Source: Botryllus schlosseri (lineage: Eukaryota). From it: a DNA stretch of 64,000 nt. The notes below the pieces were generated by a model that was given only the letters and a program-made list of their open reading frames with translations, was not told where the DNA came from and ran no database searches. Position numbers and translations under genes: made by a program. Location: contig CM119372.1 in the NCBI GenBank assembly GCA_051294905.1, forward strand, positions 26,662,001 through 26,726,000. Reading direction: 5' to 3'. Below are positions 10,401 through 64,000 of the stretch, piece by piece. Within the stretch, counting starts at the first letter, position 1; every line of letters begins with the position of its first letter.

Positions 10401-10519
10401 GGTAATAATGTTACTTCAAATAGAGGTCTTTTCTATGGCCTCCAGGTTAATGTCAAAATTGCAGATATTGATATGTGAACAGCTTCTTGGAGGTAGGCCT
10501 AGAGAACTTCAATATACAT

Positions 10520-11210
10520 TTGAATAGTATATTCATATTGAAATGAACCCGAATATTTTCGGCTGACACTTGTCAGTGGTAATCGTCAGCAAATAGTAGA
10601 GAATATGCCCTATTTCCACCCGCTTTGAAAAGCAATTGATTTCAGCGGTCAATACATGAAGACCAACGTGATTTTTACGACAACGCAACTGCTCCCTGCA
10701 ACTCGTAAAGACGTGCTTGCTGCACTTCAACAGATCAATGTAGTTTACGAATTTAAGTGTCACTGTGATTGTGGCTACGTGGGAAAAAGGTCAAAGCGCT
10801 TGCACGAACGCATAAATCAGCATTCATTAGAACACGCTCGGTGAAAAGCTCATCCTTAACTCATCCGCTCAAGATTGATGAGGAACAATCAAAGGCCATA
10901 AATTCTGCAATTAGCAAACACTTGTTGCATAATCCCACCTGTGCGAAAAATTATCGAGACGACAGATTTCGCATACAAAGGAAAGGGTCGTTCACTCTTT
11001 CATTTGTGTGCCTTGGGGTCGAATTTTATCAAAATACACCAGCCAAGGCTGTTCTAACGAAAAGAATTCGTGTATCATCTAAAATATGTTGATATACGAT
11101 GTTCTTTTAAATTCTCTACTAGGTGTTGACGATTACCCCTAACGCTGACGCCCTGATTACCCCAGCCGAAAATATTCGGGTTCATTTCATTATGAATACT
11201 ATTCAATATT
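10520..11210 (+). mobile_element. Penelope-like retroelement fragment: GIY-YIG endonuclease relic with an inverted partial pseudo-LTR
   Basis: NVVYEFKCHCDCGYVGKRSKRLHERINQH...SAISKHLLHNPTCAKNY (GIY-YIG pattern). 10520-10600 is an inverted copy of the 3' terminal region 11110-11210. Confidence 0.8.
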
Positions 11211-11789
11211 GATATGTGTGGAACACTCGCCCTTCAAACTTTGTTCATACCTTTGAATTCTCTTTGATAAACGTCACGAAAAACGTTTTTATGCTTTCTC
11301 ATTTTAATCAGATGTAGCCTTATTAGTAGCCAAAACTAAATATATGTGCGTGCAATATCGTTTTAATAAATTTATCAATGATTTATAGCTTTACTACATT
11401 TTACAGCAGAAACCTGGTACTGCTGTTCAATGCTAAAATGACGTCCGCTCCGATAGCTTGGTGCAGCCGAAACCGCTATACCACTCACTACCCTAGCTAT
11501 CCCACCTCTTAGAATTCGAATCCTGTGGTGTGTACGTTCGCCACGAGTGTTCCTTTCATTTATTATGTCATAGAATGTCAATGCAAAAGCATATTTTTAG
11601 AATATTATACCGCACAGATACCAGAGGAAAACGATCGAAATTATGTAGTTGCTGAAAATAAGACAAAATAAGGACGCAAGTCGAAATTAAGGACATTTCT
11701 TATAAATAAGGACAGTTGGGTTTTCTAAGACCTGGCCCTTCAAAATAAGGACAAATCTTAGAAATAATGACGGTATGGCAACCCTGACT

Positions 11790-13806: not shown

Positions 13807-16265
13807 GTATAAATTTTGAAGGTTACATCAATTCAATTCAAACTCAGAGCGACCGATTCATCATTTGACATTGTCTGCGATGATGCTTCTTTCAGTTAAG
13901 AGAACAGTCATCTCTGATCGAAAACCAAGAGCATATGGCGCTTCGACCAAATCTATTTTTTAAACTACTTACTTGAGTTTTTTTCTCTCACGTTCTTGGA
14001 AATCGATACCTATACCTTTAATTAAGTAGAAATTTAGGATATTACATGTACTTCTACTGGAGTAGCAACGATGACTATACGTTAGCCACCTCTGATTACT
14101 TGCATGAAAACATTTGGTTGGTGTTCTTAGTTCGCGAAAAAGTTCTTGTTGGGTGAGGCCACCGATTTTCCGGCAAGCACTGAAGATTGCAAACGCTATC
14201 ACGAGACCATTGCAAACATGTTGCTCGAACTGACTGATTTAAATGTTAGCAGTTATTTAGTGGTCAAATATCATAACACTTATTTTACATATAGATGAGA
14301 AAGTTGTACTCGAAAGTCTAAATGGGTAAGGAGAATGCTGATTCTCGAATCTGTGAAAAGCCTAATGCTCCAAGCCGGATAGCGCAATGTTGATTGAGTT
14401 CCATTCTCACTGTCTTATAGGTTACGTTATAAATAGACGACAGAGATAGAAATCTATACATTTTTTTAAATATCACATCAATAAATGTTTCAATTATTTC
14501 AGGAACAATCTTGAAAGACCGCGTCTGCTAATCGCATCGATCTCGGAGGATGATGATATGACCACGGCAGAAGGCAAAAATCCAGGAGAAAGCGTCGCAA
14601 AAGGCCGGAAATTTCATCAACGGTTATCTACGAGAGAGTTCCGATTTTCACGACATTTGAAGCACCGATCCTGGAAATTATATCTGGGGAACAAAGGAAA
14701 TTTTTGAGCGTGTTAATAGCATTCGTGTAAGCTCGCTAGCCAAATCATATTTCTGAAACAAAAATTCAAAGTCCATTGATATTTTCGACTTGTAATTTTG
14801 ATTGAAATAATATTCAAACTATCCAAGGTATAAAAAATACTCAACCAAAAAGACGCTGAAGAACTACTAGGATGTTACTCAACGATGATAATTGATTGAT
14901 GAATAGAAGAGCTAGAATTTTGAATGTGCCTTCCCGTACTTGTTATCATCATCTGGTATATTCTTGCATTTCGAAAAAAAAGATCAAATCGGAGTTGCTA
15001 TAGAGTGTTGTTTTATTGGTCCGTCCGTATCATTGGTGAAAGCATAGTCAATTCTTTTAATCTTAGCAGATGTGCACTATATATGTATATATATATAATC
15101 GATAAGAAGACAGAGCAGGGCCATAACTTACACAATCCGAAACCAGGGGTATAACGAGGGCGCTGTGTGTGCTTGGGTACCGAAATTTCGAAAATGTCCA
15201 ATTTCAATTCGATTCTAATGAGAAATATGTAGAGTCCTAAGCCTAATTCTTTCTGAAATGAATTCTACTAGTCTCGCCAATTCTATCGAGGCAAAAACTA
15301 TCCTTATAGCCGACGTCCCAGGGGTCAAACGGGGGTCATCGTTCTGTCCGGGGTACCGAAATTTCAAAAATGTCCAATTTCAATTATATTTTAATGAGAT
15401 ATATGTTGCGTCCGAAGCCTGATTATTTTTGAAATGCGTTGCACTAGTTCCGCCGATTCTATCGAGATCAAAATTATTCTACTAGCCGACGTCCCAAGGG
15501 TCAAACGGGGGCCATACTTGTTAATCCAATACCGAAATTTCGAAAATGTCCAATTCCAATGCGATACTAGTGAGATGTACGTACAGTCCCAAGCCTAATT
15601 CTTTCTGAAATGAATTCTACTAGTCACGCCAATTCTATCGAGGCCAAAATTATCCTTATAGCCGAAGTCCCAGGGGTCAAACGGGGGTCATAGCTCTGTC
15701 TGGGGTACCAAAAGTTCAAAAATGTCCAATTTCGATTCTATTTTAATGAGATATATGTTGCGTCCGAAGCCTAATTATTTTTGAAATGCATTGCACTAGT
15801 CTCGCCGATTTTATCGAGATCAAAATTATCCTTCTAGCCGACGTCCCAAGGGTCAAACGGGCGCTATACTTGTGAATCCGGTATTGAAATTTCGAAAATG
15901 TCCAATTTCAATTCGATTCTAATGTAATATATGTAAAGTTTGAAGCCAAATTCTTTTTGAAATGGTTTGCAATAGTCTCGCTGATTTTATCGAGACCAAA
16001 ATTGTCCTGCTAGCCAACGTCCCAAGGGTCAAACGAGGGCTATACTTGTAAATCCGGTATCGAAATTTCGAAAATGTCCAATTCCAATTCGTTTCCAATG
16101 AGATATATGTAGAGTCCGAAGCCTAATTCTTTTTGAAATGAATTCTACTAGTCTCGCCGATTCTATCGAGACCAAAACTATCCTTCTAGCCGTCGTCCCA
16201 AGGGTCAAACGGGGGCGATACTTGTCAATCCGGTATCGAAATTTCGAAAATGTCCAATTGTCCAT

Positions 16266-19200
16266 CAGACATGGGGTAATCGTGATTAGTAATCGTAATC
16301 GATTACGACGATTACATCATTTTCAAGTAATCGTAATCGCAATCGATTACATTCGAAAAAAATCCGAAGTAATCGTAATCGTAATCGATTATTTCACATA
16401 TCTAATCGATTTCTTGGTGAAAGAACGATTGCTTTTTGACTGAAACTGTACAGTGAACAAGGAAGAGTGCGAACTTATACCATTTTATTTGTAGCAGGTC
16501 GGCTTTTCAAGCGCCGTTGCTAATTATCACGTCACAAGCAGTAGCTTTGCTCTTCGATCACTACGCAACGAATTATCCACACATAGTAAATAGATATTCA
16601 ATGAAGGCTATATGTAGTCGTGTGATTGTAAGAATCTTCGGCATGCCGTATATCAGGTTAACAATATACTCCATACATATCCACCTAACAGCATAATAAT
16701 AACCACTACTCTGCCTAGTTTCAAATGTAACGTTTCTATTGATGTTTGATTATGCAGTTTTACCGTAGTTTTTAGCGAGTAGTAGGCCTATGACCGCGTT
16801 CACTGGATAAAGGTTTGAAATTTTGTACTCCTCAAATATTACGATTCCCACATCAAATCGTTACAAATCACCGACTGCTGATATAAATCATAACCCAGCA
16901 GGTATTTGCTGTTGCGAGTAAAGGCAGTTCGCTATACAGGTGGTAAATTGATTGTAGGCAATATGCATGCGTAAATGCGTATGTTCATCATTAAACTGCG
17001 AGAAATGTTATGCAATATTGCAGATTTTATGTTCACTTTATCTTATTCTCATATGCCCCTGCTTGAAACAGGCACCAATCGGTATTTCGCAATTCTTTAC
17101 TCAACATTTGAACCTGACGCCATAGCCCTTCGCTTATACACCATGTTAGCGTGCGTTGTAGCTGAATCTGGACCGAAACAGCAGACCCCGTAGGGCTGGG
17201 GGCAATTCCCCCTGTACCAACCTTTTACGATCGACCTTGTCGCAACAACTAAAAGACACGTTTGAGACAATATGGACTCGGTGTGTAATCAATAATTATA
17301 ACATCTTAGGACGGGCCCGTTGATATTATTACTTTGTTGCATGTTGTTAATCGGCAATCTCGCGCCTGCTTTATAGTCAAAAGATATTGCAGTCGTCCAA
17401 ACGTAGCAGACTAAACTAACGAAAAACATATTTCGTGAGACGCATACACAGATTGTCTTTTCTTCACGGGATGTATCATTTTCCTCTATGGGTACACCGG
17501 GTTGCCTTGTCCTGTGGGGCTAGTGCAGTGGTTCTCAACCGGTGTGCCGCGGCACACTAGTGTGCCAATTGGACTGTTCAGGTGTGCCGCGAGCAAATGT
17601 GGTAAGCTATGTCGAAGTATAACAAAATTCCAAATTTTGAGTGTGTCATTGTTCGTTTTTCTATTGAATTTAACCGATCACGACAAGCGATGCACAATCC
17701 GATGCAGTGAAATGATATATAAGGATGTCGAGGCGACCGTATCTCAATCTAGTATCACAATCTGACATCCCTATTAGGTCATGGATTGGGTCTTTCTCTG
17801 GGCTTTGTATTGTAAAGACGCTCTGAGCACAGCAACGTATAGGGGCGGAGAATCTAATAAATCTGCGATTCTTCGTAACTTGCTACTGTGTACTGCCATG
17901 AATCAAACTGGGGCCTCCACCGTCAATGGGTGTGATACGCTAGTTTGCCCACGCATAGTAGCATTTAGGACGGTGATAATTGAACTCGGGCAAATGGACC
18001 ATGATATTTACGTGTGGCCGAAGTGTTCACCTTTTACTTGTCACCCCCATCAGAACCGGATGCAGAACAGGGACATGACGCAGGTTGATGACCTTTTTCT
18101 GTTCCTATTTGTAGTCGTATTCTTGCCATGTCTTTATCATCGATAATCATTTTACACCATGCCGATATTACTTATTTTGATTCCTGAGATGCCAACTTAT
18201 AGCACGGCCCCCACTTTTTGTAGGACACTGCTTTTGAAGATCGGAGGACGAGTAGGAGCCTACATAAACCTCCAACACCTAGGAAGGCATTCTCACCATC
18301 GGGAAATGAACTCATTTGGAAGTGATGTTCACGTTTACAAATTAGAATTACCAACATAGCCATTCAGATTGCGATTGTTAAGTAGCGTGCCTGCACTGGA
18401 GGTAAAATGTAGGCTCAGGGCGCAACGTTATATTGCAGGCGACAAATTCGAAAATTGAGAATAAAGTTAATCAAATTATATCAGTTACAAATTTCTCCGC
18501 CGCTGAGGTTTATTATTCCGGTTTGTTGGAACTACGATTCAACTGTGGGTGGCTGCCAGCAACACTATTGAGGTATACTATCCTCACAGGTGCTAATACA
18601 CGGTCTGCGTGGAAATGCGATTGACATCCATGTATACACTTCTACGCCTCTGTATCTGTTTGTGGCGATCGTGATTGGACTCTTCGATGCGACGGTTAAT
18701 TACATCGACAATGCGGTAGTGGGCAAACTTTATATTGCCAAGCCAATCTCATGATATTAAGCTCAGCCGGAAGTTTAAACGAGATCTCACCAGGCCAGTT
18801 ATGTGGTAACAAAGGTAATAGCGGAGAACTCAAAACCTCACACGGAAGCGGAGAAAGTTCTTCTTCAGGTCTGCAATAAAGTTGTAAAGAAATCTTTGGG
18901 AAGAATTGTAAACGATTCCCATGTCTAATGATACCATTCGCAGACGTATTTGTGAGATGTCCGCTGAGATAAAAGAAAACCCAAGCAGAGAAAAGCCTAG
19001 TTGAGTGCTCCGAAAAGGTATAAGTAGCCTACTTCGTCAGTGACCATCGCTGTAAGACTATGGTTGCTGCTACACGTATTCTGGTAGTTTGCCTGTGCCG
19101 TTAGTCAAAAGAGTCCGGAACCACTGTGCTAGTGTGCCGCGAACTATTTTTCATGTTCAAAGTGTGCCACGAGGTCAAAAAGGTTGAGAACCACTGGGCT

Positions 19201-26975: not shown

Positions 26976-29341
26976 CAGCACCGTAACTGCCGCACCCCAA
27001 ACCCCCCAATTGGGGGGGCCCGAGGTCAAAGAGGGCCCAAAATTATTTAGTGAATTAGCATAAATTATAGAGTATTTTTTTGAAAATTTAGGCAACTTTC
27101 TTAAAAAATTTTCGCGCTTCGCGCGATTTCAAGCTACCAAATATCTTGATTTTGGAGTACTCTTCCCCGAAACGCAAGATTTATACAAATGGGCATATCG
27201 GCGTTGGCCATTACCGCTCCACGATCATCAAGACACATAAAGTTTTAGGCCACCTAACATGCGACTCCAAGAAGTGTGCCAGAACGATCGGCAGCGAGAA
27301 AACCTTCGCCGACAAGGACTGACCTTATGCTGACCGAAAACTTGGTTATATATACAAAATAGTGTATTTTACAATCTGAACGACAAATACCATCCCAAAA
27401 GGAAAGATTATATGCCAGTGAAGAAATACCAATTTGAAATCGTGTGCGTCTTTTAGTTTGGTAGCCTACACTCAAACTGGAGGTCACGAAATAACATCTT
27501 GTTACGGAGTAGTACCAACGGGCCCTACAGTTTCCAAGACACCTCCCTCAGCTCTATCTGTAAATCTCATTACGTGCGCAGAGAGGACACGAAATTGATA
27601 ACAATATATATGCAATTCCCGATATTATTCACCGATTTTATCATGAATTATCGAAAATTTTCGCGCTTCGCCCTGGCTCACCAGACAGTAGGCCTACAAC
27701 TAACTTCATGGCAAAAGCTAACAAGGTGATAGGGGGTAGGTTTATCACCCTATGGGAGCCCAACACCCAAGTTGGTTTTGGGAGCACCTGAGGAAGTGCT
27801 GTTTCGTTCCTGGCAACGGGTATCGCCCGAAGATATTTAAATATTATTGAGGGGTCCTACCTTTTCAAACACATCTCCCTCAGCTCTATCAGTAAACCTG
27901 ATTACGTGAGCAGAGAGGATAAAAATTGATAGCAATATATACGCAATTTCCGATCATATTGACGGACTCAATCATGAATTATAGAAAATTTTCGCGCTTC
28001 GCGCGGTTTAGGTGAGGAAAGCTGACAATCTAAACCAGTGGTTCCCAACCTTTTTCGACTCATCGCCCCCTTTTGAAGCTCCACACCGATCATCGCCCCC
28101 CAAATATTGGGAACCGAAAAACAGCACTACGTGACGCCCCCCCCCCGAAAACGTTGTTCCTTGGCCCCATATGGTGATAAACCAATCCCCAGTCACCCTC
28201 AGCCAGCGGGCTTTTTGTCGCTACATATCAGCTATACCCTATTTCCTGTACTGTTTGGTGAGTCACCGTATTCCACCTAAACGCGCGAAGCGCGACAAAT
28301 TTATATAATTCATGTTTGAATCGGTCATTATGGTCGATGTGGTATGTTGGAAAAGGTAGAACCTCTAAATAATAATTAAACATCTTCGGGCGGAATCGTT
28401 GTTATATTGACTTCTTTACATGATGTTATTTCGTGACCTCCTATATCTGCTATGTCAGACGATATGGAAATTTGTCAAAACGTACCAAACTAAAAGACGC
28501 ACATGATTTCATATTGGTATTTCTTTACTGGCAAATAATTTTTGTCCTTGCGGGATGGCATTTGTCCTGTAGGGTTAAGGTCGCCAGGACAGGAACATTC
28601 GACGCCAGCCATTGAGGCGCCTATGGACAATTAAACATATATGTATATATATCAAAGTTTTCGGTCAGCGCGAGGGCATTTCTTTTCGGCCAATTTCTTC
28701 TCGCTGCTGATCGTTCTGGCACACTTCTCGGAGTCGCATGTTACATGGCCTATAACTTCATATGTCTTGGTGCTTCGTGGCGCAGTAATGGCCGACGCCG
28801 AGGTCTCTAATTTCCATAAATCATGCGTATTTTTGTTGGGTGACGGGGACCCCAACAACAAGATACATGAAAAGATTAGATTTTGGAAAAAGTCGCATGA
28901 ATTTCTAAAAAATGACTCAATCATTCATGTTAATTCACGAAATAATTTTGGGCTTCCTTCGATTTCGCCCCCCCCCCCACCCCCAATTGGGGGTTTAGGG
29001 TGCGGTAGTTACGGTCCCGACTCCAATATAGCCGTTTTAACGCGCCATCGCCCCCCTATCGCCCCCTTCGTTGTTTTCGCCCCCTATCGCCCCCTTCGTT
29101 GTTTTCGCCCCCTATCGCCCCCTTCGTCCGTTTTCGCCCCCTATCGCCCCCTTCGTTATTTTCGCCCCCCTAGACCGCCAAATCGCCCACGTTGGGAACC
29201 ACTGCTCTAAACGGAGGCCAATGTAGATGATAAGTATCGGCAAACAGCGAATAGCGAGAGGGGGGTTCGATTTATCATCATATGGGGGGCCCAAGACCAA
29301 CATTTTGGGGGGGTGCCTGACGAAGTGCTGTTACGGCCCTG
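26976..29341. mobile_element. hAT-type non-autonomous element (CAGGGCCGTAAC family)
   Basis: cagcaccgtaac...gttacggccctg; perfect TSD ACTACAGT; interrupts the subterminal tandem repeat. Confidence 0.85.
28036..29204. mobile_element. hAT/Charlie-type element nested in 26976-29341, with a ~28-bp C-rich minisatellite (29050-29170)
   Basis: TIR CAGTGGTTCCCAAC; TSD atctaaac/ctctaaac (7/8). Confidence 0.85.
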
Positions 29342-32409: not shown

Positions 32410-33108
32410 CAGGGCCGGCCAACCCGTGGCCCGCGAAATGGTTTGGAGTGGCCCGCGAGGTAATTTTGGAAATTATTAATATTACAAAAAATGGATTGCC
32501 CAGATTGTGAAATTGCATGGCCAACCAAAAATTTGATTAGTCTGGCCGCAGCACTTGGGATGTGACGACTAAAATGCTGTGACGCATTGGCAGATCCATG
32601 TGCCAGTCAAATTTTGGTAGATCTTCGTACATTACAATAGAGCAGAATATTCCGAGGTAGATCTATCTAAAGTAAAAATTTTCTTCACGCTTCACGCAAT
32701 ATGTTGTCACTCGATTTCTTGCTTTTAATATTATTACCCCCTCCTGAAAATGAAAGAACGCTTAATGTACCAGATTAGGTCTAATTATGATTGCAAGTTC
32801 GAGGGAAAGTGTCGTCCAACATGCGACATTGCGTTTACGCTAGCAGAAAGGCCGTCGACGATGAAACATAGGCATAAATTTATTGACGCATGTTGGCCGA
32901 AGCTTTCGATATCGATATGGCCGGACGGCCGAATAGTCCAATTCTTGCAAACTGAGCCCAGCAATATACAGCAGACCCGCAATATAGCCTACTCAAGTAA
33001 CAATAATATTGACCTATAAACTTTGACAAATTTTCGCGCGGCTAGTGGCCCGTGCCATGTTTCGTCGATGAAATGTGGCCCTTGGGCCGAAAAGGTTGGC
33101 CACCCCTG
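32410..33108. mobile_element. hAT/Charlie-type MITE inserted in an exon of the SAMD3-like gene
   Basis: CAGGGCCGGCCAACC...GGTTGGCCACCCCTG; perfect TSD GTCTAGAC. Confidence 0.9.
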
Positions 33109-34240: not shown

Positions 34241-37200
34241 GTATAAGTACTGTCATAGTCATAATTTTGACCTAATACATCAGCTATTATTAGTCTGATA
34301 GTATTATTGGCTATATAAGTTCATACTATCTTTGCCTTTCAGTTTACAGTTGTGTGCCCTCTTTTTTCAGGATAATTCAGAATCATCGCACCCAGTCATA
34401 CATCCTGACACTCGAGAAACCAAGTGGACGGTGCACTTCGACGGGCTAGTGATAAATGACGTAGTAGATTTCACACATGCTTTAGCTTTCATTCTGTCAA
34501 TGCATTAGGTATTCAATATCCAGTTCGCGCGTGGTGTGGATAAGACTCTACATTTCTTGTCCATCTGCATTGCAAAAATCAAAGGGCTGCATATGCCGTC
34601 TGCGGTCGCTTCAATGTGTGAAACAAATTGATGTGCAGTTTTTAAATTCATTTGATCATTGATATACAATGGTAAGTTGAAATAGTTTTGCTTTTTTGGG
34701 AGTGCTGAAGTAGATTTTGCCTCAAGTGATTATATTTTCAGCATACTTCATTACTAGACAATTCTGACGTTGTAAAGTAGAAATAGCTATGGAATAGGTT
34801 TGTACTGGACCTAATAATACTTTAGAAACTACATGAGTGCTTGTCAAGCCATTCAAGCTACACTCATGTGGAGCATGCTTGGTCTGCTGCAGGCCAAGCC
34901 ATGCAAATATTTTTTGCACAATTTCTTTTTATACTGCTGCTGTTCATTTTCATACTGCTGTGCTTGAGCCTGCTGTATATTTCCTGCTGATCTGCTGCTG
35001 TTATTCGGCTGTGAATAAATGTACCTTTTTTCAATAGGTTTGTGAACAATCATGGCCGCCGAATGCATTGGGTCTTTCTGCCAGTACAGGTGCAAGATTT
35101 GGGTATAATGAGAGAGAGAAAGAGAGAGAGACTTACAAGATATAGCTTGTACTGAGTTCACTAGATTTAGCTTGTCAGCGTGTAACGAGTTACAAGAAAA
35201 ACCCTGTAAGCTTGTAATCGAGTCTATATACTCGATTACAAGCTTACAGGGTTTTTCTGGTATTTGTATTTTTTCCTGTAAATTTACAGGAATAATTTTT
35301 ACAGTGTAGGCCTACTTCCTGAATCACAGTCGGGTCACTGTGAGTTGTGACAACTGTAACCCTACGTGCTCACGCTCGCTGAGTGCCACCAGGGAATGAA
35401 CTGCATGATATTTGGCGCATTTACGTTGATTTACATAATAGAACACATGTATATTTCCATTCAGACGTTATCCGCCCTCATATCGAGAACACAAGCATGT
35501 TCAGCTCGGGTGCAGAAATATACTGTTCTGAAATTAGTGTTGACGGGAGAAAATGCGATATGCTCCCTAGGTAAGATTCAAGTTTTGAAGTAGGGAAGTA
35601 TTGCACTGTTTCAAAGCCTGTATATTTTAGGACTCTTGGAATATCACGCTCGGCACAACATTTGCAAGCCTACATCGTAAATTTGAAGAACCAGACGATC
35701 CAGTTTCCATTGTGAAGAAAAAAGTTTAAAAGCTATATGATGTACGAAGACAGCCTATACAGTATACAAGCAGCGGAATCGTCCACAGCCATTGCATGAA
35801 GTAGGAAACCGTATACTTCTGGACTTGTTGCTGACTAAGTAAGAAATAGCTATTTTTATGTCAGCCTAAAACAGTGTTTCCCAAACTTTTTGTACACACC
35901 GCGCCTCTTGAGCCGCAAACCAGGCATCGAACTCCCCATAACCTTCTTCCAACAAAAAGTTGTTTGATTCATAGCACAGTCGTTGTCACATTGCCGTGTC
36001 GCGTAGACTTTTTGCGTTGATCTAATTTATTTGCAGCTAGATATGTACGCTGCGTCTGCGTGGCATTTTTGTACGGATTCTAGGACAGACGCAATCAGTG
36101 AAAGCAATGGTCCAAGGACTCTTCGCGTCCTAATCATCGTACTTTGTTTCCGTTCGATATACGCTCACAACTTGTCCTTCGTGCATGCGTTTGAATGTGT
36201 GCTCCTAACCAGCGCTCAATAACTGTCACTGAATAATTAGTTTATTTGTTGTTTTGTTGTAAGAAAACGCAATGTTGCATATCAATAAACATTTGCCCGG
36301 GATGGTGGCGACGCTTTCCGATTGAATGCGCCTTTTAAGACCGCGGACGATGTGACCACATATTTATAAATCATACTTTGGTTCGCAGAGAATGAGCTAT
36401 TAATATGCGGATTTTCATAAACAGTGATCCATAGTTTATAGCGCACCCTTCTCTCAGCGGCCAAAATCATCATATTTAGAGCTAGCGCCCCCTTCAAAGT
36501 TGTAAAGGCCCCCAGGGAGCACTGGAGCCCAATTTGAAAACCACCTTTTAAAAGAACGTATTTATATGACCAATTTGAAATTTCGGATCGGGGAACCTAA
36601 GAAGAATGGAAAAAGCTTGACATGCTCTAGGAGCTATAACATTCCATTATCGGAATCACTTCATCTAACCCAGCCAAGGAAGAGCTGATGAAAATCACTT
36701 CGTAGAGGCAAACTGCTTGCATTGTTATGGAATATGCCAAGTGGATTTCACAAATATATTTACGTGCTGCTGTATAAATAAATGCGCGCTTTTGATTTGT
36801 GAACAATCATGCCAACCATTTGCATTAGGTCATTTGTACTGATGAGTAATGAGAATGAGAAAGAGAAAAAGAGAGAGTACAAGCTTGTGGTTGTAATGAG
36901 CTTACAGGCTTATGCTTGTAAGCTTGTAATGAGTTTGCAAGCTTATCGTTGTAAGGTTGTACTGGCAGTCACCGGGCTTTTTTGTGTAAATTTACAAAAA
37001 TAATTTTTACAGTGTATTTCGTATTTATACGAGCCGTGGCATATCACATTCCATACTTTTCGCCAAAAACAATCTGCTCCAGCAACTCCTTGTTATTAGA
37101 AAGTGCTTCGTGGATCTCCACGACAGATATGGTCTAGGTTTACCTTCAATCAGGGCCGAAACAGCACTTCGGGAAATTTATCAATGATCTATACCTTTAC

Positions 37201-37761: not shown

Positions 37762-40700
37762 CAGACATGGGGTAATCATGATTAGTAGGGCGGTTTTTTT
37801 TGACATGTCAAAATTTGTCAAAATTTTGTCAAAATTGTAGCGTTAGGTCAAAATTTGTCAAAATTTTTCATAAAATTAAAAAAAATTTGACGTCTTCATT
37901 TTGTTTGTATCGTAGATTTAGCACTGTCAGTGAACTTATAATTTGATGTTTTACCGCTTTTAGCCTATTTTATAGGCCTACCGTTGTAAACGGCTAATCG
38001 TCTGCTCATTGTGAATCATAAACGGTAAAAAAAATAATAGGTAGACATGGTGTTATGGTCAATGTACCGCAATATCCTAACTGAAGAAAGACTTCTTGTG
38101 CATTGCATCATTCTTATATTAAGAAGCGCATGATGAAAAATTGTGATGTATACAACATTGTCAGAATGAAGCAACACGGTGTGTCACCAGCACCAGCAGT
38201 GTACGCACAACTTGAGTGTTGTCGGCCAACAACTGCTGCTGTTGAACGTCCTTGACAAGGTTCTTAGTATGGAAGTGCACTTTCTACCCAAGAATGTAGG
38301 AAAGCATCTCTCGTTGTACTACAAAACATTTTAATTATTTCTACCATAATACATATTGTAACCACTGGAATTCTTCATAGGGCCAGATTTCGTTAAAATA
38401 TTGTTTTTTTTTTCATGTAAAGACATGCCTGTTTCTAAGCCAAAAACGTTTTTTCAGGCCAAACTACTTCGTTAGGACAGTCAGTTCAAACCAGAAATGA
38501 AGATAAGTGGTGCAATTTTAACATTATGTGGGAAAACACCTAATTTGCATACGTTAGGTCAAAATTTGGTCAAAATTCAGTTCTTTTAGGTCAAAAAAAG
38601 TCAAAATTTGGATTTTTTTGGTCAAAACTTTCTTTTTTTTAGGTAAAAAAAAACCGCCCTAATGATTAGTAATCGTAATCGATTACGACGATTACAGCAT
38701 TTTCAAGTAATCGTAATCGCAATCGATTACATTCGAAAAAAATCAGAAGTAATCGTAATCGTAATCAATTATTTCGCATATCTAATCGACTGGTTTGTGA
38801 AAGAACAATTACTTCTTACTTGTAAAAGGACTATGACAACTGACTATTCGTGAAGAAGGGAGAGTGCAATATGATATAAGGTTATAGATCGCCGAAATGT
38901 AGGATTTGCAACCTCCACTGCTCAATATTATCTCAGTATTAGCTTTGCTCGTCATTGCGTAACGAATTACCAACAAGTAGTAAATAGACACTCGATGTGT
39001 ACATGTAATATAGTGCAATTGTATAAGAATTACGCATGTCGCTACGTTACGCATGTTCTTTGTTCAACTGCCAGGAATATTATTCTTATGTGGCCATACT
39101 TGAAACGAGCATCAATCGTTAATTCGCAATTCTTTACTCAACATTTGGATCTTCAACCATCTACAAGCAGCGGTTCCAAACCGCCGGTCCGTGGCAAGTT
39201 TCCTGCCGGTCCGCAATAGACATTCGAATTTTATATCTCAATTCCAAAATGCGCGAAGATGGACGCTGATGACGATGAATGAGGGAAATAAAACATCGAA
39301 TTGTAAATTTACTGAGAAGTTATATGAGGAAGCTGCGGAAGACTTTCTAACAAACGTCGTTAAATTCCGACAGTGCAAATAAGCGATACTCGCTGTAGAA
39401 TAAGGCCTGGCAAACAGCATCTAATGTTTCAAAGGATACCGAAAAATCACGATCAGTTTAGTTGTGTTTAGCAGGACTTCGCAAGCCTCGCCTTGCGTAA
39501 ACTTCAACAGAATCACTCATAAATATTTGAAGGTTTACCGGTCAGAGACATTTTTACTTTGAAGTTTTACCAGTCCACGAGGTCACAAAAGGTTTAGAAC
39601 CACTGTGAATCTATACCATATTAGGGTGGGTTGTAGCCAGAATCAGGACTGATACACAACTTCGTCAACCCTTTCCCTAAACATTGGTCTTGTACCCTCA
39701 TAGGATTAGCAGACCCTACTTAATGTTGCTCTTGCACCCCCATAAGGTGAATATTCAAACTTCTGATTCATGACTGAATTTCGTCAATAACATTGGTAAA
39801 TTATTAATATTAATATAGATGGTAAAAATGAAGTGTTGCATATCACCATGAAAGGTCTGGTAGGCCTATACCCCGTGGAAAGTTAATTGTAAAGAATAGT
39901 CAATTCAGGACAAATACATATGAAAGGGTTGAATAAGTCACAGCAAGACGTGACAAGAGTCAACGAATTCGGTGACAGCATTTAAGAAATTGCGGGTTAA
40001 TTAGAAAATTATATGTAGTGGACGAGATATTCAGTCCCTCACAGTAGGCTACTGTTTTACCATATGTCTATGGTGAGCGTATTTACAACATGATAAAAGA
40101 AATTGATCGATAGTATCTGGTACAACATTGATAAATGAATATATTACTATTTATTTTTGATCGTCTCACATACCATGTGTTCAGATTTACCGGTAGAGCA
40201 AAGAGAGGTGGTAACTGCGAAAATTTAGAACACGTAATTAATAATTCCATCATATTCGGACGTGTCCGTTATTATTATTAATTTGTTGCATGCTATTGAT
40301 TCGTGACCTCTTGTCTGCTATACAGTTAAAAGATATTGGAGTCGCCCAACCTTAGCTGACTGAACTAAAAGAAAAACTTCTTTCGTGACATGCAGACATA
40401 AATTGTCGTTTCTTCACGTGCGCATCATTTCCTCTGATGGCAGGACAGGACTATATTCCTCACACCAATTGAGTGCGGCTATGGACAATGGATATATTTT
40501 GACAGAAAGTTTCGGCCAGGGTCGTTAGGGGCGATAAATCGTCAGCTACAAAGTTGAGCAATGGTCATATTGTGACGTAACACGCAAATGACGTAACATT
40601 GAAAATTATTTTTGTTCTCTCACGAGGTCATCTCATCGCTATCGTTATATTGTCTTCGAATATAGTCGTAATCGTAATCGACTCCTTCCAGATTTTGTTG

Positions 40701-42512: not shown

Positions 42513-45500
42513 CACTGTAAAAAATAAAAACCTCGATTTACCGCGAAATGTTTGGAAGCACGGTAGCCAGACATTTCGTGGTAATCTAACATTACCGTTA
42601 GTCAATGCAAATTCAACTTACACTCGTCCAGTGATCTCACTTTACACGCCAGACTGTAATGTTACAGTCCCCTCCGGGTATATCCAATCTACATGTTCTC
42701 CTGTACATTTGAGAGCGAGACCGCCTACCTACCTACCTACCTACATGCTGTCCCTGCAAATCAGGATACATACCAGCTTGTAAATTAACGTACGTTCATC
42801 CATACCTATGGCAAAGCAACCCGATGCTAAAATATCGCAAAATTTTCTGCACACTTCCAAAACGACAGTGGAACAAACTGTATATTCATTCATGATATCA
42901 CGATGAAGGGGTAATCGATGGAAAAGTATTGCTGCTGGAGGTCTAATTCTTCTTCAGGAGACATGCAGTAACACGAGTGGTTGCAAGAAAAGATGAATTA
43001 ATTCCACCGCCGGCGAAACTTCAAATTATTTCTTTTTCTCGTCCTCATTCCTTCTGTGTAACTAGTATCTTGCAGTTCCACTAAAAAGAATTCATGAGTA
43101 AGTCGCTATATAAAGCAAAGTTCCTAACCTAGACATGACATTATAAAGACTACTAAGACAAATAGGCTAACAAAAATATAAGGTAACATGTTTTGAAGTA
43201 CCGGTACTGGTACATTGTGTGATGAAGGCTCCGCCTTGTACATGATATAGCAGAGATTCATGACTTAGTTTATCTAATGTATTGAAGCAAAAGGTTCCTC
43301 ACCAATTCCACTCTGGATATGAGGTGGCATGTGTGCCAAACAAATCCGGCAGTGGATGAAAACATCTCTATGCTATGGCCCGAAAATGACATAAACAAGC
43401 CAACAGTTTCAACTCCTCCGCGGCGGAGTATGTGGTGTCACAGGTCACTATATAAGTCGACTAGTATCCCAAAATAGAATAGAGAATGCGGAGAATGAAA
43501 TATTTCAATCATGAAATCAAAGTGGTGTGCACATTGCACAGTCGCAGATATTCACGGTAACAAATACTATGTCGTACTGTACCTTTAACGATGCGTATCC
43601 CATTCAGCGTTCCTAGGAATCTCCCACGATCGTGTCCGCTTTCTTCAAGCACAACAAACTTCGCTCCACCCTTTGCTCAAATCTCAATAATGGCCAGATA
43701 ACGATACGACACTTGAACGATTTCGAAATACGTCGTATTCATCCGCTGACATGCCACCAATAATATTTGCTGGCCACGTTATAATGTTTGACTTAGGTTA
43801 TTTCTCTTTCATACAGACACATTTATCATGACATATAGTTCCTTTCTTTTCCATCTAATTTCGTATAAATTGATATTTATCCCAAGTGTTGTTCACTACT
43901 TACTGTACTTACTAAACGAGACGCTCCTTGTGATGTCACAGTTGTGCGTTGGCTGTTTACTACGAATCTCAGAAAACCAGTAACGCGTAACGGTATCCTA
44001 TTGTAACCTATTATAGGTCGCCTTGTCCGCCATTAGCAAATGGTCAACTGAGCATGCGGTGCTGATATTTCTAGTTTCCCGAACAATATTATACATCCTA
44101 AACTGATTTTCTAACTTATCAGCCGTATCCGTAACAACGAACGTAACCAGCGAGAACGGCCGTATAGCCATATAGCCTTATAATATAATATAATGGCTAT
44201 GGTGTAACTACATTAGCTACGATTGTCAGTTGTTTCTTGTACCCTACTATGTACTATACTAAAATTGGTACTAGGGCCAACAATTTCCGTACGACAGACC
44301 CCAGTTTCGCGAACGAGGATGAATCAAGTCAAATCACCTCGAGAATGAAATATCAGTAACATTCATTTCCCCGTATATATTGGCTGCAACGATTATGAAG
44401 CTAATCAATCTTCCCAATTGCCTGATAAACTGCAGTTACGAGTAGGGGAGATGTGGTACCGATGGATCAAAAATTGGAAAATGATCACTGGCCCCAAAAT
44501 GTTCTGCCGAAAACAGCAGATCTTTTGCTGGCTCAGCACTTTGATACAAGCACTACCTATCGCGCACATATACATGAATATCTGTCTTTTCAAAAAATAT
44601 TTATGGATGTTCAAAATTCGTTGCTCGAACGTATCATCGGTCCCCACCCGGTGGGTCCAATGGCACACGACCCGGGGACCTATGAGACATATACCCTGAA
44701 AAACTCAGATGTGGCACATTTTCTTGCTCAGTATTATAATCTAAGCTACCGCAAGCCAAAAAAGAATGTTTGGTCGCAACCGTCAAAAAATACAATAAAT
44801 ATCAACTCAAATGTTGTCATAAAATCACGTTTCGATTTAGGCTCGAACTTATAAATTTGAGGGTACATACATATTGCCCGAAAATCGACAGTGTGACTTC
44901 CAAATACCTCGTTAAAGCGATAAAACATCATATGCAATTATTACATAAATATGTTCTGTACGTAGGCATGTTTCATTTGTTTCCTGACTAGTATGCTTGA
45001 TTATTTTGCTTGATTTGGCTATTGTATCATCGGTCCCCACCCTACGAATTTTATACATGAATCGAAAAAAATTCCACCCAAGTAAGGTACTGAAAAAAAT
45101 AATAGGTGCCATTATATTGCCTGATACAAGCCCTACACTTCACAATAAAAACGATTGCTGGTTTGTTCGTGCTGAAGGTTACAAAGAAAAATGTATATGT
45201 CGATCTAAATTTAGTTTACACCCCCAAAAACAAAAAACATCTGTGAGAGACCCCAGAGCCCGCGCAAGTCGAATTTTTTTGTACGTGAGGAAAGATTTTG
45301 CCAGCATGCAATTGTAGACAGGTTCACGAAGTGTAATCATGAAATTATCATAGAGAATTTTCAAAGTATTTTCGGTCCCAGTGATCCATCGGTACCACAT
45401 CTCCCCTAACTGTCAGTAATTTTGCGAAGAAATTCTGGTAACTTGACTTACAGCTAAACTAAGGTAATATTACATATCAAAATGTAAAATTACAAGCTAC

Positions 45501-47711: not shown

Positions 47712-47871
47712 ATTTCTTATATGTCAGCAAAACGTCATTAACTGCTTTAATGTTTGAGCGATTCTAAGCTCCACTAAAGTCCAACACGAATACGTCACGA
47801 GTAGGCCTACCTGATTTTCCACACTAGAGCTGCGCCTAATACGAACAAGATTCACAAGACATTCCCTAGAG

Positions 47872-49273: not shown

Positions 49274-50964
49274 CAGGGTTGTAACCAAGCATCAAGGTTT
49301 CGAGTCACAGGCCAATCTGACTTTTATAGTTTTGACTCGAGTCAAGTCGGGTCATTTTCAATTCACCACCGAGTCAAGTCCGAGTCCAAGTCAGCAAGGA
49401 GAGGGTCGAGTCCGAGTCTAAGTGTTTTTACTCGAGTCCGAGTCCAAGTCATCATGTTCACTGTTCAGTTTTCATTTTAATCCGGTTCAACCCACTTTTT
49501 CAACTCTACTCGACTGATATGGAATGGCAACAAAGTCATCACACATAAAAATTGGTTTGTAATCTCACTCACACACACAGTTTGTGCTCACTAAACCATC
49601 AAATCCAATTACTTTTATATTGTATGCCACAGTAGCGGCCATAAAACAGCTTACGTATGTCTTAAGGCCTATTTATAGTGTTCAAATGATATAATAGAAG
49701 CTGATCTTCATGCTTACTTAAAACTTTCCCCATCCGTATGGGGTCATAGGTCAGCACCACGTATAGCACTCAAAACCAGGCATGTATAACAGTTATATAT
49801 TTCTAGCGCAATATTGTCTTCACGAATTTTGGAAAGTAACATATCATATCATATGAAATCTGGATTGAAGGGGGACGTAGGCCTACCTGACACATTTTAG
49901 TCACTAATATTTTATTCGTAGTTTGTCTAGATTAGGGGTCTCAAACACGCGCCCGCGATATCAGTTTGTGCGACCCGCGTCGGCATTTTGAATTTTATTC
50001 GTCAATATTTAACTGCCACATATATTTTTTTACACTTGAGGCGTAAAATTCGCTCTAAAACTCAACCCAAAACCTGAAAGTACTCATCAAACTTCACTAA
50101 GACTTCATTATGACATCACTTTCAAATGTTACCATGCGGTGGAAGATCAGCTATTACGTCACGTTATCCGATCATGATTGTAAAACATGACCCGTTGATG
50201 ATTGGTGACTGGAAATTATGATTTAGACTTCAGCGTCAAATGTCCGCTAGCTGCAAATTATAACACGACAGCGTTTTACGATGTCATAATGCATTTGTAC
50301 GGTCGAATGGTGTCTAAAACTAATTATTTTGACAAACTATGCCAAGGACAACAACAATTTTATTCAAATATTTAGAAATGTAATTTTTTCCGTGCCAGGC
50401 GTGAATTCACAATAGTAAATCACATTTTCACGGCTGATTCAAATCAGTGCGATTTATTTCTGGTTTTAACTCTTGATTTTTTCAATATAATTCCACCGCG
50501 TTAACTTTATTGATTTGTTGCCGGTGTTTTATTTTCCGGAGAGATGCGTGCATGTGGTTTATTATTGGACAATCATGTGCATTGTATATGAACCGGACAT
50601 AGTTTTTCGCATCTAGAGACCACTCCAGATATCATCAATGATAATCACGATACATATGCTTATGTTAATGGAAAATTCCGTTTTGACTCAGCATTAGGGA
50701 TGATTCAAATCCAGTACCTGAGGGATTCGATTTTGAATCGAGTATTAGGCGTCTATAGTCAAGTATTCAGGTACCACACATGGAAAATTCAAATATGTAG
50801 TGAATAGTGTACATTTTATGCGACCACAAAAATATAATGCCAGTTTCACACCATGACTTGGGTGGGGTGGTGACTTGAAAATGACTCGACTTCACTCGAG
50901 TCAAAACTGTGAAAGTGAGATTGTCTTGCGACTCAGACCTTGTGACCTGGTTCTTACAACCCTG
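49274..50964. mobile_element. hAT-like element with gagtc/gactc subterminal repeats in intron 3
   Basis: TIR CAGGGTTGTAA / TTACAACCCTG; TSD not preserved. Related ends near 51837-52040 and 59080-59173. Confidence 0.65.
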
Positions 50965-51471: not shown

Positions 51472-51557
51472 ATGCTTGTAACGGATCTACGGCTTCGCAC
51501 ATCAGCAAAATGTTTGCTGCCCTTCTTTCCATCATCGCCGCCTATTTCGTGATGTGA
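51472..51557 (+). CDS. Ly6/three-finger-like protein, exon 4 (CN motif plus GPI-type tail)
   Basis: ttttcag|(D)ACNGSTASHISKMFAALLSIIAAYFVM*. Completes CLCSTDACN; small-residue omega region then a hydrophobic C-terminus. Confidence 0.85.
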
Positions 51558-58798: not shown

Positions 58799-61700
58799 CA
58801 GTGGTGGCCCTAGGATTGGGGGGGCCCTGGGCGAAACTTCCAGGGGGGCCCCATATATCTATAAACGTAGCTTCTGGGGGGCTCCGCCCCCCAGACCCCC
58901 CTCCCCTCTCCGTACAACTATTATATTTGCGTGTCTACAGATTCCATGATACTATGTGGGATGTGCTGTGTCATTCGAGTTCAAGATGTGATTCTCATGC
59001 GTGAAAGTAATCACAAATACAGTGGCAATGGAAACTAAAAAAGAAAAAGTTCATACTTTTTCAAGGAAACGATGGCAGGATTCCAATGACTCGAGTCATG
59101 ATATTTTGGTGACTCGTCTTGGCTCAGATCAAAATATAAAAGTAGAATTGATATTTGACTCGGTTACAACCCTGAATGAGGACCAAGAGCTTATCGATCA
59201 CTAAGGTGACCAAACAATGAAGTTTATAGAACGCATCCATAGAATTGAAACTTCCAATGAATGAAGAAAATGCTGTGACCGGACAATTGAATTGATGCAT
59301 TTAGTTCTTCAAAAAAGTAGAAATCAAAATGATGATAGCAAATATGACACCAAAAGTAAAAAAGAACAACTAAATGGAAACTATCATACGGGTACAAAAT
59401 GATATTGGCTTGGTGTAAACTTACCAAAGCAGTCGAGACATTATGATTCATGAATACTCAAAACAACAACAACAACAACAATGACTTCCCTTCTTTGACA
59501 AGATAACTCAACCAAGAGGAGTTTATGGTCATCCAGAATTATTACCGGATCACGCAACAAGGATTAACTCATGGACTATATTTGTACAGTGAAAGAAAAA
59601 TGATTTATTCCTAACAGCTAACACAGCAAAAGTACCTACAGAAAAGAACAAATACCGGTATATTACAAATCACCACTTGTCCCAGAAGTTACCTAACCAA
59701 GACAGCTGCATGTTTATGGTAAATTTTACTATGAATGCTTGCAATGGTACCGGTCATAAAACAGCTTAGCCAGACAACCTCGTCTAAACGCCTAAAGATA
59801 GAATAGAAGAAGCTCTTGAACCTGACAATAAAATGAGGTAAGGGGTCAGAACTAGGCTCATAATAATTTTCAAAATCAAGTCATACACAGCGTCAAATTC
59901 AAATTTTGTTGGTGCAACACTGTCAACACGAAAATCTCGAACGCTATTTTTAAGAGGAACTAAACATTCAAATCGACTACTTCTTCCTACAACATACATT
60001 GCTGTCACAACTTAAAAATTATATATTCAATAAAAACTCATTTTTCAGCATTCTTATATTAGCTTCCATACGATGACTAGTGATGAAAATTTTCAAGTTG
60101 ACAGAAATGAGATGGATAGCCTACTCCAATGATTTTCATTAGCAATGACTTTAAACTTGAGTGCCGTACACAAAAAAGGTAAATTGTAACCTGAATGATA
60201 GATCAACTTCTACAAGATAGCTCATGTACAGACCTACCAAAAATTCTATCAATTTTATGATTGAATGAGCCGGAAAAGCTTGTTTTTTATCATGCGCTGG
60301 CTTGAAAAGCTGGATATTTAATTTATAAACTTGAAATTGTGATGTAGGCTACTCGGATATATTTCAAAATCACTTGATCCAAATTTCTGTCAAATCTAAA
60401 AACTGTAATTAACCATCAATTTGTTTTAGGGCAACTGACATGGAGTTAGCCTATTACTGAAAATGAATGAGATGCACCAGTCACTGAAAATATATACTTC
60501 CTGTATACACTGTAGTAGTTTCTTGTCAATGTTATTGTAATTTTAAAGTACTGAGAAAGAGGTGTTGAATATTATTCAAAAATATCATGGAAGTGATAAT
60601 CATTCACGAAAATTTTTTACGTTAGCTGATGCGATCGCGTCTCTCACACAAATCACCAATTTGATGATCGACAGCCGTTTACGGTACCATATTTTACATG
60701 GGTACATATATTTTCACGGTTATTCGCAAAATGATAACCAAAAATTGCGTAAATGTAGGAGGGGCATCCCGCATAAATCGAAGTAAGCTCGCATGCACAA
60801 CGCGTGCAGAAATTTAATGATCGACAACTGTTTACAGTACCATATTCTATATGGGTAGGCCTGCATATATTTTCAGTCATTTCCAGAATGATAACCAAAA
60901 ATCGCGTAAATGTAAGAGACCCCCTTATAAAATCAAAGTAAGCTTGCACGCAGAACGCGTGCAAAAATTTAATTATCGACAACTGTTTACGGTACCATAA
61001 TCAACATGGGTTGGCCTGCATGTATTTTCAGTTATTTGCAAAATGATAACCAAAAATGGCGTAAATGTAGAAGCCACCCCTTATAAAATCAAAGTAGCCT
61101 AAGCTCTTTTACCGCGCACAGAAATTTGATGATCGAGAACTGTTTACGGTACGATATTCTACATGGGTAGGCCTGCATGTATTTTCACAATTATTCACAA
61201 AATGATAACCAAAAATCGCATAAATGTAGGAGGGCCTTCCCTCATAAAATCAAAGTAAGCTCTTTTACTGCGCGCAGAAATTTGATGATCGACAACTGTT
61301 TACGGTACCATATTTTACATGGGTACATAAATTTTCACGGTTATTCGCAAAATTATAACAAAAAATCGCATAAATGTAGAAATGCCTTCCCTCATAAAAT
61401 CAAAGTAAGCTCTTTTACCGTGGGCAGAAATTTGATGATCGACAACTGTTTACGGTAACATATTTTACATGGGTACATATATTTTCACGGTTATTCGCAA
61501 AATTATAACCAAAAATTACGTAAATGTAGGAGGGGCCCCCCTCATAAATCGAAGTAAGCTCTTTTACCGCGTGCAGAAATTTAATTATCGACAACTGTTT
61601 ACAGTACCATATTCAACATGGGTTGGCCTGCATGTATTTTCAGTTATTTGCAAAATGATAACCAAAAATCGCGTAAATGTAGAAGCCCCCCCTTATAAAA

Positions 61701-62236
61701 TCAAAGTAAGCTCTTTTACCGCACACAGAAATTTGATGATCGAGAACTGTTTACGGTACGATATTCTACATGGGTAGGCCTGCATGTATTTTCACGGTTA
61801 TTCGCAAAATGATAACCAAAAATCGCATAAATCTAGGACGGCCTTCCCTCATAAAATCAAAGTAAGCTCTTTTAACGCGCGCAGAAATTTGATGATCGAC
61901 AACTGTTTACGGGACCATATTCTACATGGGTGCATGGATTTTCACGGTTATTCGAAAAATGATAACTAAAAAAATCAGAATTATGATTGACCCCTTTTTA
62001 CAGTACTGTACCGTATTTTTCAGGGATACGAGGATTTCCACGATTATTCAGGAAATATTAATAGTTGAAAAAAAGCGCATAAACCGGACAAATAGTTGGT
62101 AAAAAGCGCGTAAACCGGAGAAATAGTTGGGAAAAAGCGCGTAAACCGAGGAGGGGGGGCCCCTCGAAAGCGCGTAAATCAACCAGGGGGGGCCCTGGGC
62201 GACCGCCCACCTCGCCCACCCCAAAAGCCACCACTG
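58799..62236. mobile_element. hAT-type non-autonomous element carrying an internal tandem array
   Basis: TIR CAGTGGTGGC / GCCACCACTG; gggccc subterminal motifs; perfect TSD CCTGCGAA. Confidence 0.9.
60640..61970. repeat. ~150-157-bp tandem array, about 9 units
   Basis: Recurring aatttgatgatcgacaactgtttacggtaccatatt...aaagtaagctc unit. Confidence 0.9.
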
Positions 62237-64000
62237 CCTGCGAATGAATTCGTAGTTGCTCGAACGAACAATACATAGTGACATCATACATATGCCAGAC
62301 ATAGCGCCGTCAAACGTCAGACATATCTGAGCCCGAGCACGTGCGGCTGAATGTTCCGTGATAGATATTATGGCGATGCGATGTTTTCGTATTGGATAAT
62401 AACAAGCTGCGTTTCTGTAAGATATTGAGGGTTTCGAAGCCACAGCTTAACTTCAGCTTTAGAATATTGCAGGTTTTGATAGCAGATATTGTAGGTATAG
62501 CAGTATCCGAGCTCAAACCTTGGCAAGTTATTCTCAATCCTGTTTCTGAAGACGTGTGTATTTTCGTTGCAGTTTAATGTTGAACATAAGCTATGGCCTA
62601 TAAGAACGTATTACATTTTCTGACATTGAACTACACGAAAATGGAAGCGTTGTGGCATTATGAATCATGACGTCGAATGCTTAGGCCTATGTGATAGAAA
62701 GGGATCATTTCGCCTCTTGCTTCTAACACGATGACGTGCGAAATACATTGGAAGTGCGATGCAAAGGCATATTACCAGAAAAGTTTGCAATCACGCTGCA
62801 AAAGACGATTCAGGTACGAAGTCCTAGTAGTCCTGTAGAATTTGGTCTAAAAATGGGTCAACCTAGAAAAAATTCTTATGAAGACGTTTTACATACCGTT
62901 GGAAAGATAATTTTACCAGCTTTTCAATGATAGGTTTTGTCACTTTTTTTACCTAGGGGAAAAATAATTATGACCAAAAACGTGCCAAAGGGTAAAAATT
63001 CAAATTAGGGAAAATATTAACATAAAAATATGAACAAAAGACTATAAACTAATGAATTATCAACAGAAAAGCAGGATATAGATGCAAAAGGAATATATGA
63101 AAATTAAAATAGAATTATGTATATGTTTCAGGGAGTAAGAGTGAGCAAGACAGGGGGGCGCAAGTAGAGCTATCGTTGTTCGTTATAACTTCATTATGTT
63201 ATTGTTTACTTACTATGGTCTGTTTCATTTACCTTGCTTGTTTTTTCAAGATAGTGCTTAGTCAAAAAGAAACAGGAATTTGTGTTAAGTGTAGAAACGG
63301 CTATCGGACTGGTGATTCACTGTGTCATTCGGGAGCTTATTTCTTAGTGATAATACCACACACCCTTTAAACTCGTGTTGCATTTAAAACAACAATCAAT
63401 TAAAAACAAACTTGTTTAAAACAAGGCCCTAATTTAAAACATGTTTTTATTGTTTTTTGTTTTTAAGCCATGACATCATGAATATTCAATTGTGACGTCA
63501 TAATGGATTGAAATTGACCATCGAAATTATAGGGTAAATGTAGCCCCTTTGACAAAATATCTGTACTACAACTGTTGAACCGACTATTTTGATGGTTCCA
63601 CTTCCAACCATCCCATAACGATATACGTCGGCTAACTTTGGTAGTAATTAACCGTGTGCTCATACAACATGTTTTTGGAAAGTATTTACTGTAACGATAG
63701 CATACCATCGTTGTTTAGAAGTACCAAGCCACGCGTGTGATCCTGATGTAAGCCATGCTCTTGGTCTGCCGTGTTTCTTATTTAATTGGCATATTTAGTA
63801 ATTGTTTACCTTTTTACAGGCATAATTAGTAATTAAGATCAATGATGTTAGTGTAGGATTGTTGCCGGAATAAATTGGTAAGATTTGCATTGTTAGATAG
63901 GACGCAGTAAGCTAGTATTGATTCTGTTTTTGTGTAACTTTTAGTTCACCGTATCACTTCCGTATTTCCACTGCAAAAAGAAGATTCATGCGCCTTGGCT

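Follow-up and report, generated by a model that had tools for sequence, protein, structure and literature searches.

The 64,000-nucleotide stretch of the Botryllus schlosseri genome analyzed here (the window; G000:C2:26662001-26726000 of the 495.5-Mb genome) raises the question of why three related words, the octamer TAGGCCTA and the heptamers TAGCCTA and TAGGCTA, recur in it nine, seven, and eight times, respectively. Only 0.5 (Markov order 2) to 0.9 (Markov order 3) copies of the octamer were expected, which agrees with the prediction of fewer than one copy per 64 kb made in a preliminary description of the window. All nine octamers listed in that description were present (Table 1), with one position corrected from ~47803 to 47802. 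We conclude that the words are very probably inherited excision footprints (scars) of GG-ended transposons of the pogo superfamily (DD35D, Fot-like architecture) and of their MITEs (miniature inverted-repeat transposable elements). This kind of footprint is textbook knowledge, and what is new is the naming of its source.

Abundance and form of the insertions at TA

A genome-wide word-enrichment analysis, as suggested in the preliminary description, yielded 43,701 occurrences of TAGGCCTA against 9,854 of its reversed control and 10,508 of GTAGGCCTAC against 119 of the control. In 36 loci chosen by round coordinate (360 kb in total; the random loci), we counted 40 copies of TAGGCCTA, where 4.3 were expected, and 82 of the heptamers TAGGCTA and TAGCCTA, where 36 were expected (44:38 on the plus strand). 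Extrapolation gave a genome excess of ~34,000-38,000 octamers and roughly 50,000-60,000 heptamers, the latter figure being rough because the octamer density in the random sample was ~25% above the genome rate, and a total of roughly 80,000-100,000 scars. Not all copies are independent events, as 5 of 51 TAGGCCTA copies had flanks in common with another copy; chained scars of the octamer were not found among the loci collected. The three words are among the most over-represented dispersed words in the genome and can now be tied to identifiable elements. In analyses of k-mers or motifs, words of this kind could be taken wrongly for regulatory signals.

That the words arose by insertion was deduced from paralogous copies, which showed a net gain of 5 or 6 bases with the TA duplicated, as had been claimed. 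An all-against-all comparison of 154 sequences yielded 833 indels of 3 to 12 nt, 103 of which duplicated a TA. The commonest of these were TAGCCTA/TAGGCTA (15) and TAGGCCTA (11); 4 of these 26 came from targeted loci (L151-L154), and L125 and L126 were duplicates of each other. TACCGTA/TACGGTA accounted for 7 of the 103. Within the window, paralogues sought among the collected loci were found for 12 of the 24 occurrences. The extra bases were missing from the paralogues at six of the 12 (10494, 27689, 39861, 32985, 61095, and 10101), while the word was common to the paralogues at four (37973, 37961, 40045, and 43163, where one paralogue carries a substitution), which are hence not independent events; the comparison was ambiguous at 19025 and 27462. 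The three paralogue examples given in the preliminary description were of unequal quality. That at 61095 was clean, with +5 relative to the other array units, and that at 27689 was supported, as most of 12 paralogues were without the extra bases, with local indels present. The example at 27462 was weak, the left flank being shared with the copy near 28485 and the rest of that copy not.

The spectrum of forms was recorded in two genome-wide searches in which a repeat site was fixed and any TA-N{1,10}-TA was permitted between the flanks. For the repeat site matching window position 10494, 12 insertion alleles were recovered, namely, TAGGCTA (5), TAGCCTA (4), TAGGCCTA (1), TACAGTA (1), and a tandem duplication (1). 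For the GG-TA-CC site in the terminal inverted repeat (TIR) of a MITE resident in the window, there were four, namely, TAGGCCTA (2), TAGGCTA (1), and TAGCCTA (1). The three predicted forms made up 14 of the 16 insertions (10 of 12 and 4 of 4), with TAGGCTA at 6, TAGCCTA at 5, and TAGGCCTA at 3 over both sites. The long forms were a minority among many plain copies, and the change is therefore most naturally polarized as a gain of bases and not as a loss. In the random loci, the three-base forms TAGGGCCTA and TAGGGCCCTA occurred 0 times and once, respectively, compared with 40 times for TAGGCCTA, and neither TAGGGTA (31 versus 33 expected) nor TAGCCCTA was enriched.

Two observations concern the fate of existing scars. 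At L144:~1490-1500 (G000:C5:~26264115), a MITE had inserted in the second TA of a pre-existing GTAGGCCTA scar, and another TA-targeting element, with one CACTGTAAAAATT end, had likewise inserted in the second TA of an existing scar. Scars are therefore re-used as targets.

Resident GG-ended elements and their link to the scars

No intact element had been seen in the window in the preliminary description; a GG-ended, TA-flanked MITE was nevertheless found at 44445-45406. It gave 40 full-length matches (itself and 39 copies at 94-95% identity) from the 40 of 2,225 candidates that were scored. TA flanks were present on 30 of 30 copies, and an empty-site paralogue of the window insertion showed a single TA. 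Contigs of four of four runs pass over 44443-45406 (contigs on 32500-50500, with alignments dominated by repeats). The MITE belongs, as a nonautonomous member, to the candidate source group. A transposase-coding element at C6:1163679-1170623 (DD35D) has a TIR identical to that of the MITE at both ends and flanks of the form G-TA..TA-C; it is ~45% identical to family B (see below). A 3.5-kb insertion, accompanied by an 8-bp duplication, disrupts this element, and a second copy lying nearby is 99.8% identical to it. A genome-wide search with the end pattern gave 2,832 matches against 133 for the control, corresponding to ~1,400 elements, and the first 100 matches listed were mostly of the window MITE type. 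Among longer candidates bounded by MITE-type ends, five were rejected, as they proved to be MITEs with nested inserts or neighboring copies.

The genome search with PF03184 (DDE_1) gave 72 matches, and 50 loci were examined. Most of the elements with definable ends were ~2.9 kb long, were flanked by TA, and started with GGG, while others started with CCG or CAG. By their first bases, the GGG-ended elements fall into families A (GGGTAGAGTGGGG), B (GGGGAGAG), C (GGGGAGACCGGGG), and D (GGGGGG). Many pairs of copies were 97-99.6% identical and some 91-96%, and the open reading frames (ORFs), of ~510-640 amino acids (aa), contain DDE_1 with DD35D. Two representative ORFs (582 and 616 aa) also showed a weak HTH_psq match (E 0.0017 and 0.0005; 18.4 and 20.2 bits, slightly below the 20.4 cut-off), and PF05225 is present in many homologues. 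Families with such open ORFs and near-identical copies are candidates for active transposases. The TIRs were short (inverted ends of 19-28 nt, TA included), and an empty-site paralogue was found for 30 of 57 elements, with a single TA where the alignment was clean. Homologues are widespread, numbering 598 proteins at E<=1e-30, the named ones being from molluscs, leech, barnacle, and Hydra. The GGG-ended proteins were only 24-28% identical to CCG-ended family L084 of the same genome, and in a tree of 10 proteins from this genome, built without published references and after removal of 4 of 14 rows in which the motif was missing, the GGG families did not resolve. A census of recurrent ends starting with TA in 1.02 Mb, a sample enriched for GG loci and amounting to 0.2% of the genome, yielded 28 families, 11 of which start with GGG (4 are pogo-type, and the others, to judge from their TAGGG ends, are hAT-like).

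Other transposase families were also encountered. A CCG-ended Fot-like family (L084, L106, and L113; e.g., G000:C7:28972812-28975723) matches a published Botryllus schlosseri Fot-like element over its first ~70 bases, the ends of L084 agreeing almost letter for letter with those given in the rows of PMC7386202 compared here. The TACCGTA/TACGGTA indels may be scars of this family. TACCGGTA was not counted as a proven scar of CCG-ended elements, since its excess, like that of TAAGCCTA, is in good part repeat-internal. Further pogo-type families (L074, L079, L081, L094, and L091) have DD35D with ATATAGTAA ends or DD36D, with termini not fixed. The genome search with PF07592, which we take to be a Zator-related family, gave no match to support Zator as a source, with only two candidates scored, and that with PF13358 gave no matches, the search being evidently insensitive, since PF13358 does score the GGG-ended proteins. 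No useful Pfam match was obtained for six window ORFs, and a metagenome scan gave two loci, of which L155, the one examined, was without a clear TIR. Transposases of PF13359 (PIF/Harbinger/ISL2EU-type) are very abundant (891 candidates and 151 matches, with many open frames and near-identical copies). TA-GG ends were found in none of the 30 of these 151 loci that were examined, the ends being AAT-flanked like those of ISL2EU, which is described as duplicating AT (PMC4482050).

The link between the elements and the scars was deduced from their flanks and from a site held in common. G at position -1 had a frequency of 0.63 at 107 element ends and 0.57 at 102 scar flanks (two per site; p=0.86), compared with 0.22 at all TA sites, and A at position -3 had frequencies of 0.52, 0.43 (p=0.24), and 0.31, respectively. 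At position -2, elements and the octamer did not differ (p=0.96), and at -1 both differed from all TA sites. Furthermore, L089, a full 2,878-bp element of family A, occupies the same TA of the MITE TIR as the four scars described above. Together with the plain copies, this gives one sequence in empty, full, and scarred states among paralogous copies. The source is probably not a "ghost," as had been supposed; the GGG-ended pogo elements are resident, are young, and have the target preference of the scars.

Several observations weigh against this source. No single locus was found in both the full and the scarred state, the three-state evidence coming from paralogues, and none of the 30 elements with an empty-site paralogue had a scarred paralogue in the alignments. 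Nor was an uninterrupted coding copy of the MITE's family found, both copies found being interrupted. Some scar copies have multiplied inside repeats, and TAGGTA/TACCTA, the hexamers that would correspond to the most frequent footprints of Tc3, are rare (2 of the 103 TA-duplicating indels). The heptamer flanks differ slightly from the element ends (p=0.04 at -3 and 0.06 at -1), a difference probably due to background dilution. Finally, the scars outnumber the detected elements (~1,400) some 60-fold, and 4 scars were found in the MITE TIR site (<2,832 copies) compared with 35 per 1,051 plain GTAC sites in the random loci. The small number of scars in the young MITE TIRs implies that the majority of scars arose before the current burst of MITEs, probably through older families with GG ends.

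Proposed mechanism and rival explanations

In the mechanism that we propose, the elements insert at TA, favor A-N-G-TA-C-N-T, and duplicate the TA, as was observed. On excision, by analogy with Tc1 and Tc3, the transposase would cut two bases inside each 5' end, and each flank would then retain TA and a noncomplementary GG 3' overhang. End-joining with both overhangs kept would produce TA-GG-CC-TA, while the loss of one base, or the alignment of G opposite G, would produce TAGGCTA or TAGCCTA about equally. An X-family polymerase would bridge the overhangs, which are unpaired, and may leave out a base. The observed pattern is that scars build up genome-wide, with some copied within host repeats and some re-used as targets.

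Tc1 and Tc3 of Caenorhabditis elegans are alike in the TA target, the TA on both sides, the retention of two terminal bases per end, and end-joining. They differ in having CA/TG ends rather than GG/CC, and only here do the one-base-short heptamers exceed the octamer, with hexamers rare. Furthermore, germline repair in C. elegans is mostly by homologous recombination, whereas the scars here were inherited in huge numbers. The +4 scar typical of somatic Tc1 reads TACATGTA. In the portions of the literature covered here, Tc1, Tc3, and IS630 are described as cutting with a 2-bp stagger and Sleeping Beauty with 3 bp, and the commonest Tc3 footprints are TACATA/TATGTA (bioRxiv 10.1101/659086); for somatic Tc1, the +4 form accounts for 78% of events, and the scars depend on nonhomologous end-joining (PMC13148408). 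The canonical Sleeping Beauty footprints, TACAGTA/TACTGTA (bioRxiv 10.1101/659086), are likewise two mirror-image heptamers in similar numbers, but they are attributed to the 3-nt stagger. From GGG ends, such a stagger is expected to leave TAGGGTA/TACCCTA, for which there was no enrichment, and the heptamers are therefore read as two bases plus one. Unlike CAG ends, GGG ends can discriminate between cuts of 2 nt and 3 nt.

Fot and Fot-like pogo elements (Gao et al. 2020, PMC7386202) resemble the GGG-ended elements in DDE_1, DD35D, short TIRs, TA duplication, and a length of ~2.9 kb; their psq-type N-terminal helix-turn-helix has a putative counterpart in the weak HTH_psq match described above. 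Among the part of the rows of their Table S1 considered here, however, the 13 animal Fot-like rows end in CCG, CAG, or CAA, and the GG-ended rows come from fungi, red algae, or oomycetes (TAA/TAAA) or from Entamoeba (TA) (PMC7386202). Passer, also of the pogo superfamily, is described as having a target consensus, AAGTACTT, close to A-N-G-TA-C-N-T and footprints of 0-4 bp, but it belongs to another pogo family, and its ends and DNA-binding domains are not the same (PMC9976928). Among the papers listed, no publication on this motif was found by title or abstract start; Repbase and subscription journals, which lay outside the search, may catalogue GGG-ended mariner/pogo families.

Excision by a TA-targeting cut-and-paste family, as put forward in the preliminary description, is the best reading of insertions with a duplicated TA. 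The accompanying proposal was an extinct or undetected family with GGC...GCC ends, to which a 3-nt stagger can be added; GGC ends with a 3-nt overhang were also our initial working model and were dropped once the GGG-ended elements were seen. Full overlap with a G:G mismatch would give the two heptamers (compare Sleeping Beauty) and GC microhomology the octamer, a scheme that accounts neatly for each of the three forms and for the scarcity of hexamers, and most scars do seem to date from before the current burst of MITEs. This explanation is nonetheless very unlikely. None of the 28 TA-end families in the biased, partial sample of 1.02 Mb starts with GGC. The no-overlap product TAGGCGCCTA was found only within one repeat family, for which reason it was dropped as a scar, and 0 copies with G..C flanks were present in 1.02 Mb. 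Scars also lie inside young MITE copies and match the flanks of the GGG elements, and ~1,400 of the latter would be left without any visible scar. GGC termini are also not needed, since two terminal bases per end (GG + CC) already yield TAGGCCTA.

An origin without a transposon, by polymerase slippage, template switch, or theta-type insertion at GTAC, is consistent with the palindromic octamer, as expected from fold-back synthesis, and with the fact that no excision was seen at one locus. It was judged highly unlikely because the GG/CC insert is not templated by the adjacent flanks, which vary freely, because the same inserts recur at unrelated sites, and because among the 16 palindromes of the form TA-xy-y'x'-TA only GGCC (9.3-fold), CCGG (6.4-fold), and AGCT (3.4-fold) are in excess, many CCGG copies being repeat-internal. 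Scarcely credible is the reading of the words as footprints or collapsed remnants of hAT-type MITEs with TAGGG...CCCTA ends; the absence of an 8-bp duplication already refutes it for the most part. MITEs of this type are abundant, three of them lying in the window (at 20590, 37786, and 55797), and TAGG and CCTA can be read from their terminal bases. They carry 8-bp duplications, however, while a direct repeat of at least 6/8 on both sides was found for only 1 of 51 TAGGCCTA copies, and comparison with paralogues gives a net gain of 5 or 6 bases at one TA.

If the scars derive from GG-ended pogo-type elements, scar counts measure past excisions missed by element counts and amount to a large readable record of jumps and repair, in which the octamer-to-heptamer ratio is a readout of end-joining in the cells passing DNA to the next generation. 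We suggest more tentatively, and with rather less than even confidence, that a little-described, GG-ended, TA-targeting pogo lineage may be the general source of the motif excess here and in other aquatic animals, and that the ~10^5 scars may reflect a 2-nt stagger and heritable-line end-joining over unpaired GG overhangs. Were this true, the cumulative cut-and-paste traffic would be ~60 times that implied by the surviving copies.

Sites and other repeats in the window

Table 1. Scar words and GG-ended elements in the window
Feature	Position	Strand	Remarks
TAGGCTA scar (+5)	10101..10107	+	Absent from 2/2 paralogues
TAGGCCTA scar (+6)	10494..10501	.	GG-TA-C site of dispersed repeat; 9/10 paralogues without insertion, 1 with decayed heptamer form
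TAGGCCTA, presumed scar	16783..16790	.	No paralogue found; G preceding TA fits target preference
TAGCCTA, weakly supported scar	27462..27468	+	Copy near 28485 matches in left flank only
TAGGCCTA scar in dispersed repeat	27689..27696	.	Paralogues AACAG-TA-CAAC, e.g., window 24051
TAGCCTA scar (+5) in hAT-like MITE	32985..32991	+	Absent from 4/4 paralogues
TAGGCCTA, presumed scar	35307..35314	.	No paralogue found
TAGCCTA + TAGGCCTA fixed within hAT-like MITE family	37961..37980	.	TAGGCCTA in 4/4 paralogues, TAGCCTA in 3/4
TAGGCCTA scar	39861..39868	.	Single paralogue (L054) with plain TA
Larger TA-flanked TIR element, ends CACTGTAAAAA	42511..45583	.	Host of GG-ended MITE insertion
GG-ended MITE, 962 bp	44445-45406 (with TAs 44443..45408)	.	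25-bp TIRs starting GGGGAGATGTGG; TA duplicated both sides
TAGGCCTA, presumed scar	47802..47809	.	Flanks G-TA..TA-C; no paralogue found
TAGGCCTA, presumed scar	49878..49885	.	Flanks G-TA..TA-C; no paralogue found
TAGCCTA scar (+5), one unit of 150-bp tandem array	61095..61101	+	Plain TA in 7/7 other aligned units
TAGGCCTA, presumed scar, atypical flank (T preceding TA)	62682..62689	.	No paralogue found

The words at 37961..37980 are either old scars copied along with the host MITE or not scars. At 32985, the contigs of four of four runs omit five letters, probably representing paralogous copies. hAT-like MITEs with 8-bp duplications were located at 20590-21207, 32405-33113, 37786-38661, and 55797-56454, and two of them contain scar words. 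Tandem arrays of 176/352 bp occur in both orientations (15176-16259, 19848-22850, and 24568-24905; inverted at 8716-9186). One of these arrays is interrupted by the TAGGG-ended MITE at 20590-21207, with its 8-bp duplication, and an array unit near 8713 carries a 14-bp insertion containing TACACTGTA. Just beyond the far end of the window starts a long ORF (L053:1-1500 and window ~63700-64000) that, on visual inspection, looks like a Bel/Pao long terminal repeat retrotransposon gag.

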